DNA from: Escherichia phage EC148
Sequence record: NC_106721.1
DNA: 64,000 nucleotides
Reading direction: 5' to 3' (one strand)
In this document: positions 12,550 to 63,616 of the stretch, piece after piece
How the letters are laid out: each line of letters opens with the position of its first letter
Position numbering within the stretch: the first letter of the stretch is position 1
Program-made: the position numbers and the translations under genes
The notes under the pieces: generated by a model
What the model saw: only the letters and a program-made list of their open reading frames with translations
What the model was told of the DNA's origin: nothing
The model's database searches: none

Positions 12550-12739
12550 GGGTTTAAACTCCGCTTTGGAAAATGCATTAATGCAGCAGTGGGAAACTGG
12601 CTATAAGGATGGTGTTGAATCCTGCGCTACTATGCTAGAAGTTATTGCTAATACCTTAATGGAGAAAGGCAATAAAGAATTAGCTGAGCTATTAGACAGT
12701 ATTGGGCAAAACTTCAGAGAACAGGTGAAAAATGCGTAG
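12518..12739 (+). CDS. hypothetical protein (73 aa)
   Basis: ORF track; GGAGAAA RBS upstream. Confidence 0.45.
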   Translation: MAFSKPILPDKGLNSALENALMQQWETGYKDGVESCATMLEVIANTLMEKGNKELAELLDSIGQNFREQVKNA

Positions 12740-13568
12740 ATTAATTATTATTAGTGGTGCGGGTTTGAGTGTTGAAAGTGGTGTACGAGCCTTCCGTACT
12801 GATACTGCTAGTGGTAAAGCATTGTGGGATGACTATGATCTAGAAGAAGTATGTAATATTCATGCCTTTCGTGGTAATTTTTATCATAAAACCCATATGT
12901 TTTACAACAAGCGTCGTGAAGAGCTAAAAACTGTTGAACCCAATCTTGCGCATTTGCGTATTGGTGAATGGTATAAACAATATCCAGGTCAAGTAGTAAA
13001 CTTGACTACCAACGTTGATGACCTTATTGAGCGTGCTGGCGTTCCACATAGTGACATTCTGCATATTCACGGATATTTAAAAGAGGTTGTTGTAGCTGAT
13101 AGCTACAATAGTAGCAATAAACGGATTATTGATGTAGGATACAATTCTATTGATCCAGATGATTATAAATGGGTTAAACCTAATGTAATCTTCTTTGGAG
13201 AGCATGCTCCTGCATACGCAGAAATGTATAATGTTTTTGACGGTATTACCAGTCAAGATATGATCATTGTGGTTGGTTGCTCTAACCAAGTAATTAACTT
13301 CTACTGGGAATTATTTCCTGTTCTTAATAGGACTGCTGCGAAATTTATGGTAGTTAACTACTATGATAGTGCCCTCGCGGCGGAACCGGGCTATCAAGGT
13401 ATGACTCGTAGTGAGATGTACCAGCTGGAAGAACGTGGTGTCCCTTACTGGAGTAAAGGTGCGGTAGATGCTTTTAGTGATCCTGATTTTATTGCTCGTG
13501 TAGAAGCTCATTTAGAGGGTAGACCTTATGTGTCGAGAAGCAAGGGAAACAGATATGTCCATAGTTAA
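12732..13568 (+). CDS. Sir2-family protein (NAD+-dependent deacylase or NADase fold) without the zinc ribbon
   Basis: Motifs GAGLSVESGVRAFR, PNLAHLRI, TTNVDDL, HIHG, VIFFGE and IIVVGCS match sirtuin Rossmann-fold signatures; no 2xCxxC Zn module present. Confidence 0.75.
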   Translation: MRRLIIISGAGLSVESGVRAFRTDTASGKALWDDYDLEEVCNIHAFRGNFYHKTHMFYNKRREELKTVEPNLAHLRIGEWYKQYPGQVVNLTTNVDDLIERAGVPHSDILHIHGYLKEVVVADSYNSSNKRIIDVGYNSIDPDDYKWVKPNVIFFGEHAPAYAEMYNVFDGITSQDMIIVVGCSNQVINFYWELFPVLNRTAAKFMVVNYYDSALAAEPGYQGMTRSEMYQLEERGVPYWSKGAVDAFSDPDFIARVEAHLEGRPYVSRSKGNRYVHS

Positions 13569-14232: not shown

Positions 14233-14661
14233 ATGTTCAATAATGTATTCTCTAAAGAAGCTAACCCAATTTTGGTTAACTTTTGGCGTACTCTACCGGC
14301 TAGCCTGTATAATGAGGCTATTAACTCCTTGAAAATATGGTGTGAGAATAACGAAATCTCCTTTGCTTTTAAAGATGATATTGATGAGGCCCCCTGTATT
14401 GGTTTAATTGTGCAGGTAGAGGATGGTCTTGAAGAGATTGTGGGCTGGAAAGAGTTAGACGAAATGGGCTTAGTTTTTGCGTTAAATTATAAGCTGTTTA
14501 TGCCTGCTAAGCATCGCCTTGTTGTTAACTATAAAACTAGTGAATCTCCTGGTTTTCAGGTTAATGAACGTTATGGTTGGTCTTACTCACCGGAAGAAGT
14601 AAATGAGGGGATTCAGAAACTTCGACGTTTCGGGTATATGATCCCAGGTTTAACTGCTTAA
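14233..14661 (+). CDS. hypothetical protein (142 aa), paralog of the next gene
   Basis: Shares ...PC[IV]G...W.EL..MGL[IV].ALN..LF.P...PGL[TN] with 14671..15063. Confidence 0.55.
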   Translation: MFNNVFSKEANPILVNFWRTLPASLYNEAINSLKIWCENNEISFAFKDDIDEAPCIGLIVQVEDGLEEIVGWKELDEMGLVFALNYKLFMPAKHRLVVNYKTSESPGFQVNERYGWSYSPEEVNEGIQKLRRFGYMIPGLTA

Positions 14662-14670
14662 GGAGGCAGA

Positions 14671-15063
14671 ATGGAACAAGTATATTGGCGTCAGATTGAT
14701 CCTAGTTTGGTGAAACGTGCGGAGAAGCTGCTACAACGTTGGTTGGGGGTAAGACAAGCCTCCTTCACTTTTCCGGAGCAGCAAATAGATGATCCCTGTG
14801 TTGGTGTTTTCCTATCCGGCTACGCGGGGGAATGGGAGTTGGATTGGAATGAGTTGTCTGCTATGGGTTTAATTGTTGCCCTAAATTTCTCTTTGTTCCA
14901 CCCACGTGGTTTGGCCATATGTCGTGTGTCGGATGATGGTTGTTCGCCCCATCTTTTACAGGTGGAAGATGATATTTGGGAGTACACTCCAGATATTCTC
15001 AAAGAAGCTAAAGAACAATTAAACCGTGTTGGGATTTATGTTCCAGGCTTAAATGATGAATGA
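14671..15063 (+). CDS. hypothetical protein (130 aa), paralog of the previous gene
   Basis: Tandem duplicate of 14233..14661; AGGAGG RBS; followed by an intrinsic terminator. Confidence 0.55.
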   Translation: MEQVYWRQIDPSLVKRAEKLLQRWLGVRQASFTFPEQQIDDPCVGVFLSGYAGEWELDWNELSAMGLIVALNFSLFHPRGLAICRVSDDGCSPHLLQVEDDIWEYTPDILKEAKEQLNRVGIYVPGLNDE

Positions 15064-15086
15064 TTTTTATTAGCTGAACTCTGATT

Positions 15087-15112
15087 ACCGAGTCATTTTG
15101 GCTCGGTTTTAT
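15087..15112 (+). terminator. intrinsic terminator after the accessory cluster
   Basis: Stem ACCGAG/CTCGGT with 9-nt loop, then TTTTA. Confidence 0.55.
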
Positions 15113-15154
15113 CCGTACTCAAGACCAATGATAGCACCATCCGGAAAATTTTAC

Positions 15155-15183
15155 TTGCAGGATGCCCAAAATCTTGATATAAT
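15155..15183 (+). promoter_or_regulatory. T5-type early promoter (TTGCAG-17-TGaTATAAT) heading a ~500-nt untranslated region
   Basis: Extended -10 TG present; conserved ATTTATATTGAATTGAGAGAC downstream; no ORF for ~500 nt. Confidence 0.6.
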
Positions 15184-15682
15184 ATTTATATTGAATTGAG
15201 AGACATTAGTAAAAATTGATTTTGCTAATTTTTCTTGTTTACAATCCGCGATACGGAACAGTTAGGCTGCCCCATTAAGGGTTGTTTTAACTGTTACGTG
15301 TTAGTTTTTAAACAAATAGTTAATAGAATACTTAGCGATCTGCGTCCCATAGGAACCCTGGTAAGGCCTCGAAGCAACCTAGTATGAGGTGGTTGTGAAG
15401 TGAGATGGGAGGAGTGAAAAACTCCGAGACGTGATTCTGTAAGTTATATTGCATCTAGTATGAGCTAGTATATGAAGCATTAGGTGAGCAAATCTGGCTT
15501 AGCGGCCATCCTCAAGGATTTGTGCGATATAGCAAAGCAGCAGCGCAGCGTGAAAGTGGAAGTTGCCACCCCCCTTCAGTATTTGCGATTAATTTGTTGA
15601 GAAATTGACAGTAACAGTTGTTCTATTCTTTCTGAATAGTCCTAAAGAAAACTTATTTTATTTCCAACACAGGAGTATTGTT

Positions 15683-18472
15683 GTGTTCTCAATCCTACAA
15701 GGTCATGCAGGATTTCATCGCGATTTAGCCACAGGCAATTGGCGAGAAGTTAAAGCAGAAGACTATCTTTTTGCTAAAAGATTTTCCTCAAAGCATCCTG
15801 AAGGTAAACCAGCCTCAATGCCCTTCAAGTTTGATGTAATTGATGAAGTTGATCCTCAAACCCTAGTAGAAATGCTTCCTCTTATGAGACGTTTAACGTC
15901 TGACCCTCATATCGTTGCGGTACGAGGTCGATGTCTTGCACCTAAAAATAATGTGCGACGTAAGAAGGGCAACTTTAATGTATCTAATCCAAGTCATATA
16001 ATTGCAATGGACGTGGATGGTATTGTAGATACAGGTGGTTGTAACAAGTTTGATCTTGTTGGCATGGCTCGACATATTATTAGGATGTTAAATAGTATTA
16101 GTGAGGATATGTTTCCTCTTGATGCAGGGTTTATCGCTCATGCATCGTCTTCGGCTGGGCTAAAACCAGGTATCCGAATGCACTTAATACTAGAATCTAA
16201 TGTTAAAGTAACTCAGGGTCAAATCAAATTCTTATTTACATCTATCAATGAAAGTAGTAGACAAAAGTACGGCTTTGATATTGCCGACTTAGCTTATTAC
16301 TCTTCCGTACAGCTCCATTATTTTGCAGATCCGTTATTTACTGATGGTATAGTAGATCCGTTTAAGGCGGAGGGTGCTTCACGTCTGGTATTTGTTAAAG
16401 GTTCTAAAGTAAATTTACCAAATAATCTGGTTGACTATGAAACAACTAGAGGTGAGTTTAAGGAGGAGTTTTACTCTTTACTCGATCAAATTAAAGGTAA
16501 AAAAGCTGCCTCTGATAAAGTAGAGGAAACTATCAGCGAACTAGAAGAAGCTGAGGATGGGGTGTACTTGCGTATTATCCCCAAACTATACCATAGAGCA
16601 TTAGAGGATGGTGTTGATTTTGCATGGCTAGAAAAAGAAATCCGTCCAGCCTTATCAGAATATATCGCAACTAAAGATAACAGTCGTAATATTCAAGATT
16701 ATTTTAATAACGGTCGTAAGCAGGCTCTGAAAGCGTTTGTTAATAATTCTAAACGCGATATACCCGATATTTTAAAAGGTATTCCACTTAAAAAGCTAGA
16801 AACTAATTCTCTAGAAACTGATAATTTCTTGAAACTAAATACTGTGCCACCAGAAGGTTATATGACTTTTGTAAAAGCGAGTTTAGGCACAGGTAAAACC
16901 ACGGCGGTTGTGCGTTGGTTAGATTCAGGAGTTATTAAAGGTAATTTTTTAGCAATTACCAATACTAGAGCACTGGTATCTTCAAATGCTAAGAAATTTA
17001 GTGCAGGACAATACGATAAGTCTGTAGATATGCTTAATTTTAAGCGTGGTGCTATTGACCGTATGTCCACAACTATTCACTCTTTGCATAAGTTCAAGAG
17101 TTTTATTGGTCAAATTGATGCAATCTTTATCGATGAATGTGATGCAGTAATGAACGACCTATTATTCGCCCCGGTTGTTAAACAACGTCGTGAATGTATT
17201 CAGGTTCTTCGGGATATTCTTGCAACTGCAAAAATCATTATATTATCTGATGGGGATATTAGTGCAGAAACAATTGAAGCATATGGTTCTTTGATTGAGT
17301 TTGATAAACCGGTTGCATTTTATAATCATCACCGTAAAATGCTATCAAAAGCTCATGCTTATGAGTTCCCTGATGAATCCAGTATTTGGGTTGCACTTCA
17401 GACTTCTCTAGAGATGGGTGAGAAATCTATCCTAGTATCTGACTGTGGGCCAGATGAACTGAATGAGAAGGGCATGGCATTGCGTCGTAATACGGGTGCG
17501 TTAGTTAAGGAAATCCACTCAAACTCTACATCTGATGTGGATATTAGACGTATTCTGGATTATACAACTAATGAGCTAATTGACCAACAAATTGATTGCT
17601 TATTATGTAGTCCATCCGTAACGAGTGGAGTTGACTTCAACTATTTTGATAACGTATTTGTTATTACTAGAACTAGTAACCAGGCGCCAAACATGCGTTT
17701 CCAAGCAATCAGGCGCGACCGTGGTGCTCAGAATATTTATTATTTTATTGATAAATCTACGAGTGGATTCTCCGCAGGTTCTGAACAATATAACATTGAT
17801 GAAGGTTGGCTGGAATTAGCACAGCAATTATACGCACGTCGTAGGGAGCTGGAGTCTAGGAACTATACTAGTACTTTACGTTATTACTTGCTTGATCAGG
17901 GTGCAACTATTGATATTTTCAGTGAAAGCTGGGGAAATATCGAAGGTGCAGGAAAAGAGTACACGGAAGAGCGAATCAAAGCCATTTTGTATTCAACTCC
18001 TGATTATTGTGCTCCACGCCATGCAGATGCGTATGAAGCTAAACTACTTCTTGTTCGCTACTATCATCTTGAGTCTATCAAAGATGTAACAGTTGAGCAT
18101 GTTGAACAATATATCAAGGATAAACCGAATGATCGAGCGGCATTCTTCCATAAGATGCACGAGATGTTCTGGGAGGATATTAAGAAGTGTTCAAATGTCA
18201 CTATCAAACCATTCATAGAAGCTCTGAAAGGTAAGAAGAAAGATTTCTTCCTTAAAACAGGTCAAAGTGCTAACCCAAAATATGCCAGAATGTATCTTGG
18301 TATGATGGGTATTGGTAAGGATATGAACACGGAGAATATTGTAGACTGGTACAGAACTTATTGTAAAATCGAGTGTATGCCAATCCCATATAAGTTTATG
18401 ACTGATGAGGAAAAACATATGCATGATGAAGCAATGGCAGAGCTAGGTGCTAGAAATGACAGTGAAGAATAA
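15683..18472 (+). CDS. large replication-initiation NTPase (T5 D2-like, origin-binding-protein/helicase type)
   Basis: Walker A SLGTGKTT and Walker B IFIDECD. Start set at GTG 15683 (AGGAG RBS 7 nt upstream) rather than TTG 15605. D2 equivalence is from position and size only. Confidence 0.6.
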   Translation: MFSILQGHAGFHRDLATGNWREVKAEDYLFAKRFSSKHPEGKPASMPFKFDVIDEVDPQTLVEMLPLMRRLTSDPHIVAVRGRCLAPKNNVRRKKGNFNVSNPSHIIAMDVDGIVDTGGCNKFDLVGMARHIIRMLNSISEDMFPLDAGFIAHASSSAGLKPGIRMHLILESNVKVTQGQIKFLFTSINESSRQKYGFDIADLAYYSSVQLHYFADPLFTDGIVDPFKAEGASRLVFVKGSKVNLPNNLVDYETTRGEFKEEFYSLLDQIKGKKAASDKVEETISELEEAEDGVYLRIIPKLYHRALEDGVDFAWLEKEIRPALSEYIATKDNSRNIQDYFNNGRKQALKAFVNNSKRDIPDILKGIPLKKLETNSLETDNFLKLNTVPPEGYMTFVKASLGTGKTTAVVRWLDSGVIKGNFLAITNTRALVSSNAKKFSAGQYDKSVDMLNFKRGAIDRMSTTIHSLHKFKSFIGQIDAIFIDECDAVMNDLLFAPVVKQRRECIQVLRDILATAKIIILSDGDISAETIEAYGSLIEFDKPVAFYNHHRKMLSKAHAYEFPDESSIWVALQTSLEMGEKSILVSDCGPDELNEKGMALRRNTGALVKEIHSNSTSDVDIRRILDYTTNELIDQQIDCLLCSPSVTSGVDFNYFDNVFVITRTSNQAPNMRFQAIRRDRGAQNIYYFIDKSTSGFSAGSEQYNIDEGWLELAQQLYARRRELESRNYTSTLRYYLLDQGATIDIFSESWGNIEGAGKEYTEERIKAILYSTPDYCAPRHADAYEAKLLLVRYYHLESIKDVTVEHVEQYIKDKPNDRAAFFHKMHEMFWEDIKKCSNVTIKPFIEALKGKKKDFFLKTGQSANPKYARMYLGMMGIGKDMNTENIVDWYRTYCKIECMPIPYKFMTDEEKHMHDEAMAELGARNDSEE

Positions 18473-62856: not shown

Positions 62857-63034
62857 TTAGTATAAAGCAAAAAGACATCTAAGTAAACTAAATTTTTTAT
62901 TTTTTGGATGGTATATTGGCAGAAACCACTATGTAAGAAAATGAGAAGTCCTTCTAGGAAGTCACAAGCATGGTTGGTTATATACAAATTATAAAATATT
63001 TTTAAAATACCATACTCATAGGAGCAAGAAAGAT

Positions 63035-63163
63035 ATGTCAAATAAAAGAAAGAACAGACGCGGAGAAGTGTACGAAGCGTGGATTAATATTTACGGATTT
63101 GGTTTTGTATTATTCCTAATCTTCGTAGGTTTTTGGTTAGCAGCTATGGCGGGGTGGATTTAA
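63035..63163 (+). CDS. small membrane protein (42 aa)
   Basis: Found by hand (below the ORF-track cutoff); AGGAG RBS; basic N-terminus then one hydrophobic helix. Confidence 0.4.
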   Translation: MSNKRKNRRGEVYEAWINIYGFGFVLFLIFVGFWLAAMAGWI

Positions 63164-63318
63164 TGGAATGGGTAATTATTGGCATATTCGTCTTATTGAT
63201 ACTTCTCTTTGTAGGCTTACGTGTAATAGATACCTCTGTAACCCAAACAGAAATTAAATTAATGCAGTTGAGTAATAGATTATCTAGAATTGAAACTTTA
63301 TTAGAGGAGCGTAAATAA
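63163..63318 (+). CDS. small membrane protein (51 aa), MEWVII family
   Basis: ATG at 63163 overlaps the upstream stop; N-terminal TM helix and C-terminal SRIETLLEERK. Confidence 0.45.
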   Translation: MEWVIIGIFVLLILLFVGLRVIDTSVTQTEIKLMQLSNRLSRIETLLEERK

Positions 63319-63425
63319 TGGAATGGGTAATTATTGCACTACTGGGGATTGTGATTATTGGGCAATGTATTTTAGATAATCATTTAGCTAGAATTGAAAC
63401 CTTACTATCGGAGAAACGTAAATGA
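63318..63425 (+). CDS. small membrane protein (35 aa), MEWVII family
   Basis: Found by hand; MEWVIIALLGIVIIG...ARIETLLSEKRK; paralog of the previous gene; TAATG overlap. Confidence 0.4.
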   Translation: MEWVIIALLGIVIIGQCILDNHLARIETLLSEKRK

Positions 63426-63616
63426 TGGAAGTGGGAATTACACTAATAGTAATATTAGTCTGGGTAATCCTCATTGTCTCTCGTATCGTGTATCTCCGCC
63501 TAAAAACTCTAGAAGCTCAGGTGAAACAACAACAAGTTATTCTAGAAAAGTTAGTACTACTGCAACGTTGTGATAGCACCCGTATTCTGCAAATTGAGAG
63601 GGAATTAGATGTTTAG
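63422..63616 (+). CDS. small membrane protein (64 aa)
   Basis: ORF track; N-terminal TM helix then predicted coiled coil; ATGA overlap. Confidence 0.45.
   Translation: MMEVGITLIVILVWVILIVSRIVYLRLKTLEAQVKQQQVILEKLVLLQRCDSTRILQIERELDV

Follow-up and report, generated by a model that had tools for sequence, protein, structure and literature searches.

The RNA considered here is encoded in the gap ahead of gene D2 in the T5-like Escherichia phage EC148 (sequence record NC_106721.1), and several described systems resemble it in part. Large structured RNAs that carry invariant loops are seldom found, and those that are understood have usually proved to be catalysts or the cores of ribonucleoproteins (RNPs). 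GOLLD, ROOL, OLE and raiA, known from phages and bacteria, are like the D2 gap RNA in that they are phage-borne, extend over several hundred nucleotides (nt) and have many covarying helices and invariant loop nucleotides, but they are usually free-standing genes, often near tRNAs, whereas the gap RNA matches no Rfam family and is fixed in the leader of one gene, so far only in Demerecviridae of enterobacteria. A long-range imperfect duplex flanking a folded RNA is also found in the processing stalks of bacterial rRNA precursors, with which the RNase III sites of phage early transcripts (the R sites of phage T7 and the N leader of phage lambda) can be grouped. As at RNase III sites, the corresponding duplex of the gap RNA, here called P1, lies in a polycistronic early transcript before a coding region, although its cleavage is only proposed. 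The T7 and lambda sites differ in being local hairpins of ~20-30 bp that enclose no conserved core of 245 nt, and bacterial rRNA precursors differ in that the RNA enclosed here is neither rRNA nor tRNA. ColE1 RNA II and the origins of phages T7 and T4 share with the gap RNA a strong promoter, a transcript of ~500 nt, a fold that is conserved while the sequence drifts, an A/T-rich end and adjacent replication functions. Unlike ColE1 RNA II, however, the gap RNA has no antisense promoter of the RNA I type, its ends are locked in a stalk and a persistent hybrid or an RNA-to-DNA transition would be hypothetical, while the transcripts of the T7 primary origin and of T4 ori(uvsY) and ori(34) need no elaborate fold. 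Riboswitches, T-boxes, HK022 put and lambda nut are likewise structured RNAs that head an operon, lie on its strand and are read through, but in the gap RNA no expression platform was found and no riboswitch model matched, and put and nut are far smaller.

The DNA that we analysed, referred to below as the window, is the whole stretch of 64,000 nt, and the gap occupies its positions 15064-15682 (619 bp). Its left neighbour is an open reading frame (ORF) of 130 amino acids with a DUF7415 domain (14671-15063), and its right neighbour is D2, which has a GTG start at 15683 (taken as annotated in phages T5_ev212, Lindwurm and T5) preceded by the Shine-Dalgarno sequence CAGGAG at 15670-75. Judged by comparison with related phages, this gap encodes a large structured RNA on the plus strand, in which the architecture and not the sequence is conserved, and we consider it very probable that this is a genuine functional structured RNA. 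Minimum free energy (MFE) folds made independently for nine lineages gave the same plan in each, consisting from 5' to 3' of a 5' hairpin (HP1), a conserved motif, the P1 stalk enclosing a multi-helix core, and a 3' hairpin. The predicted elements are listed here in window coordinates.

15198-15236, plus strand: HP1, 5' stem-loop of 16-19 bp, beginning ~8 nt past the start site
15250-15275, plus strand: conserved single-copy 5' motif GAUACGGAACAGUUAGGCUGCCCCAU, outside the P1 stalk
15288-15332, plus strand: 5' strand of the P1 stalk, pairing with 15578-15620; includes AACUGUUAC (15289-97)
15333-15577, plus strand: core domain, 245 nt, closed by P1
15335-45/15543-51, plus strand: P2
15346-15409, plus strand: P3 domain, holding P3a, P3b and P3c
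15411-25, plus strand: P4 hairpin
15426-33, plus strand: core motif GAGACGUG
15438-54/15523-39, plus strand: P5, with P5a at 15455-68
15489-94/15517-22, plus strand: P6
15496-15507, plus strand: invariant mini-hairpin GGCUUAGCGGCC within P6, stem GGCU/GGCC, loop UAGC
15554-59/15571-76, plus strand: Plast, the terminal hairpin
15578-15620, plus strand: 3' strand of the P1 stalk; includes GUAACAGUU (15611-19)
15623-15639, plus strand: 3' hairpin CUAUUC-UUUCU-GAAUAG, abutting P1, with no T-run after it

When the window was compared with phage T5, near-identity was seen over ~110 nt from the start of transcription and over ~75 nt at the end, but the middle (15283-15583) was only 30-54% identical, vs 85-100% in the flanking genes; the two forms are nearly equal in length (496 vs 494 nt). 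The reverse case was found in relative L014, where the flanking genes are 60-80% identical to those of the window and the gap is 94-98% identical. Two alleles of the core are thus in circulation in Tequintavirus and Epseptimavirus. Type A, the window's form, was found in 162 records that match 80% or more of the query at a single place, and type B, T5's form, comprises most of the ~300 records that match in two pieces at 80-90% identity.

A global MAFFT alignment across all lineages, analysed with RNAalifold, misaligned the helices, and the structural evidence comes from alignments within each allele together with anchored, alignment-free tests. For type B (19 sequences), RNAalifold predicted 152 pairs, with 99.8% of cells paired. 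Thirteen of these pairs had changed on both sides, as compared to 5.5±1.3 in column shuffles (none of 500 reached 13) and 0-1 in slid controls, in which the partners were moved by 1-3 columns. These double changes lie in inner P1, P2, P3c, P5, P5a, P6 (four pairs) and Plast. For type A (14 sequences, 160 predicted pairs), compensatory changes were present in 22 cells at six pairs, located in P2, P3, P4, P5 and Plast. The number of cells was higher than in shuffles (6.1±1.8; 0 of 500) and in slid controls (0-1), while the pair measure was weaker (6 vs 4.4, with 61 of 500 shuffles reaching 6). Because four of the six type A pairs (two in P2, one in P4 and one in P5) change jointly in relatives L004, L036, L037 and L039, they are not fully independent; the P3 and Plast pairs vary in sequences other than that four-phage clade. 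The predicted structures of the two alleles also agree with each other: of 97 type A pairs in columns 110-420, where the alleles diverge, 58 are matched by a type B pair no more than 4 nt off on both sides, vs 0-22 pairs in shifted controls.

The stalk P1 is an irregular long-range duplex of ~45 bp with a perfect 9-bp core (AACUGUUAC/GUAACAGUU, located by a repeat search), and both alleles are predicted to form it. Calculated in windows fixed on the invariant 8-mer CUUAGCGG, the P1 duplex had z values of -3.7 to -6.9 in six of eight lineages and was weaker in the other two (-2.0 in L043 and -1.2 in Klebsiella phage Sugarland). Each lineage has 42-56 pairs in this duplex, 4-13 of them G-U, and the enclosed core measures 236-250 nt in all eight. 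The sequence of P1 differs per lineage (AUUAUUAUACAG/CUGUAUAAUAAU in DU_PP_V, GGUUAUUAUAUAAC/GUUAUAUAAUAACC in My1 and CUAACCACAUA/UAUGUGGUUAG in PR1), and one-sided changes from U-G to U-A preserve the pairing. HP1, P1, P2, P3, P6, Plast and the 3' hairpin recur with different sequences in up to nine lineages, the cross-lineage helices having been checked by script as fully paired. Variants of P2 are CUGCGU/GCGCAG, CUACAC/GUGUAG, CUGUA/UACAG and UUGCUA/UAGCAA, and those of P3 are CCCAU/AUGGG, CCCGU/ACGGG, GCCGU/ACGGC, UUCGU/GCGAA and UGCGG/CCGCG. P6 variants around the invariant loop include CAAAUC/GAUUUG, AUAGAAAU/AUUUCUAU, CCACA/UGUGG, GUGGU/ACCAC and AUACG/CGUAU, and an anchored-window test of this helix against shuffles gave a combined p = 2.6e-4. 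HP1 was found with differing sequences in eight lineages, with 14-18 pairs in each, and is predicted by RNAalifold in both alleles; the 3' hairpin has changed to CUAUC/GAUAG in Sugarland, CUUUCC/GGAAAG in DU_PP_V, UACUAU/AUAGUA in L043 and UUCUUU/AAAGAA in PR1.

A few short segments have kept their sequence. The 8-mer CUUAGCGG (15498-15505) is identical in every core-bearing lineage, down to 57% D2 identity, and the outermost pair of the mini-hairpin covaries (GACU/GGUC in My1). The 5' motif GAUACGGAACAGUUAGGCUGCCCCAU is kept in both Tequintavirus alleles, DU_PP_V and My1, and is looser in Sugarland and L043. The spacing of four short conserved motifs differs by no more than 10 nt among the five lineages that carry all four, and RNAalifold proposes a candidate pseudoknot, GGCUGC:GCGGCC, that would join the 5' motif with the mini-hairpin. 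The strand of the fold can also be assigned: 21 of the 152 consensus pairs are G-U, equivalent to C-A mismatches on the minus strand, and the fold therefore belongs to the plus strand, which is further backed by the one-sided U-G to U-A changes and by the direction of the promoter.

The fold is present in Tequintavirus and Epseptimavirus phages of E. coli and Salmonella, in Sugarland and ~78 relatives, in Pectobacterium phages DU_PP_V and My1, in Providencia phages PR1 and PSTCR5, in Proteus phage Stubb and ~9 relatives, and in one metagenomic contig. Matches to the gap sequence of the window were found in 534 phage records, and in Escherichia phage T5_ev212 (LR597659) it is 100% identical. 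In 32 of 32 relatives from IMG/VR, the 533-886 nt ahead of D2 hold no ORF of 80 amino acids or more, and a stretch free of such ORFs likewise precedes D2 in My1 (590 nt) and in Serratia phage Kamaji (433 nt). A covariance model of type B P5-P6-Plast reached the type A copy (15449-15571) at E 0.67 and Sugarland at E 4-5, in each case at homologous positions. Since false hits of this model score alike, these matches are not significant, and as the model reaches type A and Sugarland only at E 0.7-5, little sequence is shared between the alleles. A scan of the sequence collection with the pattern GAACAGTN{220,250}CTTAGCGG returned at least 120 stretches; among the matches listed, an adjoining GGCTGC was present in only nine T5-like loci on eight contigs (seven T5 relatives and My1), and the remaining stretches look like chance.

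Several relatives vary in length around the conserved parts. In L012, L025 and L034 an insertion of 97 nt, flanked by the 8-nt direct repeat TTTTTCTT, is located at the equivalent of just after 15228, where it follows the 3' arm of the HP1 inner stem; the U-run of the outer stem is the repeated TTTTTCTT. Phages with either core type carry this insertion in almost the same form, with one C/T difference, and it could be an additional RNA module or a small mobile element. L004, L007, L010 and L034 have 170-270 extra nt ahead of the promoter, after the upstream gene, which brings their gaps to 788-886 nt. The gap of Stubb (L053 / L178, MH830339 52741-53560) is 820 nt long, and the depositors' notes to that genome describe an 'empty low gene density area' and ORFs without Shine-Dalgarno sites.

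We compared the region with known RNA families and with features expected of other kinds of sequence. A scan against Rfam 15, suggested in the original prediction, matched no family: the whole window at gathering scores gave 0 hits, a permissive scan of 14500-16500 gave four chance-level hits only (E 1.7-9.5; one of them inside the RNA, over 16 nt), and ten relatives searched at E<=1 gave nothing in the region. The models in this release include those of GOLLD, ROOL, OLE, HEARO, raiA, RNase P, 6S, tmRNA, riboswitches and the T-box. A likeness to RNase P RNA had no support from Rfam and was set aside. No similarity to the gap RNA was found by blastn in complete E. coli genomes, and no description of a D2-upstream RNA was found in the literature. 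The family is thus absent from Rfam and apparently undescribed, and as far as we found, its architecture, its fixed place before D2 and its two interchangeable alleles are new, while elements of this kind, whether RNA leaders or large structured RNAs of phages, are already known.

No ORF is conserved in frame or position across the relatives; the longest stop-free frames differ by lineage, and cross-lineage peptide matches in all six frames occur only at nucleotide-conserved patches. The gap (15064-15682) contains no match to the DnaA box TTATNCACA with up to one mismatch (73 such matches occur across the window, vs 84±11 expected), and no iteron array, only three two-copy direct repeats of 11-15 nt. 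As to an expression platform of riboswitch or attenuator type, we found no terminator before D2 and no helix occluding the Shine-Dalgarno sequence that is conserved beyond Tequintavirus. On the minus strand, no promoter-like site was found between 15190 and 15700. A switch-like pairing of 15253-64 with 15288-99 was rejected, as it is conserved neither in other lineages nor in most type B sequences. Antitermination was rejected on terminator position: the next strong plus-strand terminator downstream is at ~20564, and so there is nothing to read through earlier.

The original prediction had been of ~570 bp of non-coding DNA with its own promoter ahead of a D2-like gene, and this gap is real. 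Its statement that no ORF exceeds a few codons was too strong, given an ORF of 50 amino acids with a TTG start at 15235-15387 and others of 38-40 amino acids, but none of these is conserved. The segment had also been called visibly more GC-rich than its surroundings, which is a weak distinction (a peak of 0.45 at 15400-15599 vs 0.46-0.48 in coding DNA just upstream). The repeat TAGTATGAG does occur twice, as had been noticed (15380-88 and 15456-64), without special meaning, in that 22 of 100 shuffles give at least two matches in the 64-kb window; the copies sit in two different hairpins of the RNA. The tract GCCACCCCCC is present at 15565-74, where it forms the loop and 3' strand of one hairpin, but it has no significance of the kind implied, and this C-tract is missing from the T5-type allele. 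GC content, the 9-mer repeat and the C-tract are therefore incidental and are not what makes the region special. Among the functions that had been offered for the region, a structured RNA, possibly a regulatory leader for D2, holds as far as structure is concerned, in view of the compensatory changes, the long-range stalk, the shared architecture and the lack of a conserved ORF. A replication-origin region finds no backing at the level of DNA features, iterons, tandem repeats and DnaA boxes all being missing from the gap, although an origin primed by RNA is conceivable.

The transcription and translation signals around the RNA consist of the following.

15087-15112, plus strand: intrinsic terminator of the upstream operon, stem ACCGAG/CTCGGT followed by a T-run
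15143-15183, plus strand: T5-type sigma-70 early promoter with an A/T-rich upstream tract, recognised by its sequence
15640-15685, plus strand: A/U-rich linker with the Shine-Dalgarno sequence (CAGGAG, 15670-75) and the D2 start codon (GTG, 15683-85); 15620-15669 is 74% A+T

A terminator is annotated at the equivalent spot in T5 (AY587007) and in phage Lindwurm; a simple terminator scan missed that of the window because its loop is 9 nt long. The promoter position had been predicted correctly, and the hexamers are found there: it is composed of -35 TTGCAG (15155-60), a 17-nt spacer, an extended -10 TG (15175-76) and -10 TATAAT (15178-83), and is the counterpart of the 'putative early promoter T5P32' annotated in phage T5 (AY587007). 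A TTGC..17..TATAAT promoter with the same hexamers and spacing class heads the gap in every enterobacterial relative examined. We infer that transcription starts at ~15190, a position that we assume by likeness to the T5 promoter PN25. A weaker promoter-like site, TTGATT-18-TACAAT, lies at 15216-15245 inside the HP1 3' arm, and is kept in both alleles because that segment is conserved. In AKFV33-type phages (L008, L015, L022, L041 and L045), the usual upstream promoter region is missing and another promoter, TTGCAAGGGAGTATTATTTTATAGTATAAT, is present instead; these phages retain the RNA from ~+5 onward. L008, L015 and L022 are also without both DUF7415 genes, and the nearest upstream ORF there encodes 168 amino acids.

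The D2 product is a 929-amino-acid 'replication origin binding protein', in which Pfam recognises Herpes_ori_bp alone (residues 394-533) and PHROGs, on the same half of the protein, phrog_3712 ('replication origin binding') and nothing further. A search for homologues of the D2 N-terminal domain returned two near-identical proteins only, which gave no alignment and no structural clue. On the upstream side, two paralogous DUF7415 proteins are encoded side by side (14233-14661 and 14671-15063) directly before the terminator, and a Sir2-like ORF lies at 12732-13568. Inside the window, only one other stretch of more than 500 nt is, like the D2 gap, without an ORF of at least 70 amino acids. This second stretch, 62857-63536, has 680 nt at 33% GC, an ordinary folding energy and no Rfam match.

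In T5-like phages of Vibrio, the DNA before the D2 homologue is likewise poor in ORFs over 650-750 nt (JSF12, L048 300-1041; Achelous, L049 1215-1871; D252, L050 1320-2000). No significant long-range duplex or folding signal was found in that DNA, and for this reason we do not claim homology. It is G/A-rich in JSF12 and Achelous, both of which carry GUGACUAACCRACC, and a sigma-70-type promoter lies ahead of it in Achelous and D252. The tiny ORFs annotated there in D252 look spurious, and the Vibrio phages may have a separate large RNA.

We tentatively favour the reading that the main role of the gap RNA is the cis control or processing of the D2 message, while stopping short of calling it probable. 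The RNA and D2 are on the same strand, and the position upstream of D2 is kept in all relatives. As a terminator scan predicted none between the fold and D2, the RNA would form the first ~490 nt of the D2 mRNA. We propose that the element acts at the RNA level, mainly in cis. P1 resembles the processing stalks that flank rRNAs, and like the stalks cut by RNase III it is a duplex of at least ~20 bp flanking a folded RNA; a double-strand-specific nuclease, for example host RNase III, would cut P1 and free a stable folded core RNA. At the head of the remaining D2 message would stand the 3' hairpin, followed by an unstructured, A/U-rich region for ribosome landing before the weak GUG, and the outcome would be that the amount and timing of D2 are set early in infection. 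A conserved protein partner may bind at the invariant loop and the 5' motif, or these may make contacts in tertiary folding.

Several points weigh against this reading. We infer from sequence where transcription starts, that it continues into D2 and that the RNA may be processed. We found no conserved helix joining the RNA to the D2 ribosome-binding site, the candidate helices 15248-54/15676-82 and CACAG/UUGUG near the start codon being limited to the Tequintavirus group. Known phage mRNA leaders need nothing nearly as elaborate as a 245-nt core with invariant loops, and Kamaji has a short version of 325 nt that is without the invariant loop. In Stubb, ~300 extra nt and a consensus TTGACA-17-TATAAT promoter, the latter ~50 nt before D2, are located between the RNA and D2, and with this promoter downstream of the RNA, D2 there need not depend on the RNA's own promoter. 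Two measures of folding energy were dropped as evidence: the MFE z of the region is -2.5, and coding DNA of the window has z of -2.3 and -3.3; the folding gain of the plus over the minus strand is 13-50 kcal/mol, and coding DNA of the window behaves alike.

The RNA could instead act in trans as a stable non-coding RNA, which is possible but which we doubt. The P1-closed domain (~330 nt) would be excised or accumulate alone, and would serve as an RNP scaffold, as a ribozyme, or as a decoy that draws off a host factor or a defence system, its adjacency to D2 reflecting shared early transcription. Its size, its closed domain with joined ends and its invariant loop nucleotides resemble autonomous RNAs more than leaders; it has a strong promoter plus a 5' stabilising hairpin, and in Stubb another promoter, placed downstream of the RNA, is available to D2. 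The divergent alleles of the same fold in near-identical genomes would fit selection on shape and a few contacts, possibly in an arms race. Against this, the element is always directly upstream of D2 on the same strand, no terminator or defined 3' end follows the fold, and no similarity in Rfam or to host DNA points to a mimicked partner. A ribozyme or a self-assembling RNA particle may be considered as a further reading. The early transcript could also belong to a transcription-dependent origin, acting as a pre-primer or in an R-loop near its 3' A/T-rich end; T5 DNA polymerase would extend the transcript, D2 would load on the displaced strand and the fold would control hybrid formation. D2 is a bipolar SF2 helicase that is initiator-like, related to herpesvirus UL9 and has been proposed as the T5 initiator (PMC3632103), and the gap is at 48.5-49.0% of the T5 genome, near the molecule's centre, where T5 origins were mapped by older electron microscopy, according to a passage of bioRxiv 10.1101/866236. 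That mapping is coarse. A strong early promoter is present, followed by a structured transcript (493 nt, or ~490 nt as rounded here) that ends in 74% A+T at 15620-69; a pre-primer of the ColE1 type would have its promoter ~500 nt upstream of a putative initiation point. ColE1 RNA II is similar in size to this transcript. We nevertheless think an origin unlikely here, because the gap has no iterons, tandem repeats or DnaA boxes, no local GC-skew switch and no antisense promoter of the RNA I type, because a self-paired RNA whose ends are locked in a 45-bp stalk would be poor at invading DNA, and because the C-rich tract is allele-specific.

Alternatively, the region might be only a DNA-level site, a double-stranded origin or an operator bound by D2 or another protein, with RNA folding incidental. 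Two islands, 15250-75 and 15496-15507, are indeed strongly conserved as DNA, and AAC[A/T]GTT occurs three times (15258, 15289 and 15613). Yet conservation of the AACNGTT copies ends with the Tequintavirus group and no repeated binding-site array is present, the 21 consensus G-U pairs make the fold strand-specific, and helices have been kept by compensatory and G-U-compatible changes despite divergence, unlike DNA-binding sites; this explanation is very unlikely. We find it scarcely credible that the gap is a decayed or unannotated coding sequence, or a neutral spacer with chance structure. Mechanical ORFs of 38-50 codons are found there and some genome records annotate tiny ORFs, but none is conserved, the insertions and deletions are not multiples of three, and the Stubb annotators themselves report missing Shine-Dalgarno sites; covariation is above that in controls, and the gap can be 94-98% identical where the flanking genes are only 60-80% identical. 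Even taken jointly, the DNA-level and the coding or neutral explanations have little chance of being correct.

In T5, a model phage for 70 years, neither the origin of replication nor the control of the initiator-like helicase D2 has yet been defined. An RNA of ~430-490 nt that is supported by covariation and lies before D2, near the centre of the genome, is a concrete object for the study of both, in a region where annotators currently put spurious small ORFs. Two alleles with the same fold and 30-54% identity, swapped between near-identical genomes, constitute a natural experiment on which nucleotides matter, and their existence suggests selection acting on the RNA. It is conceivable, although we rate it as improbable, that the element represents a new class of large phage RNA, with a ~330-nt stalk-closed domain and an invariant CUUAGCGG loop, that is active in the initiation of T5-type replication. 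If that were true, the RNA would be a folded pre-primer, or a partner that recruits or loads D2 at a central origin, and its two interchangeable alleles would be a determinant of specificity or of an arms race.

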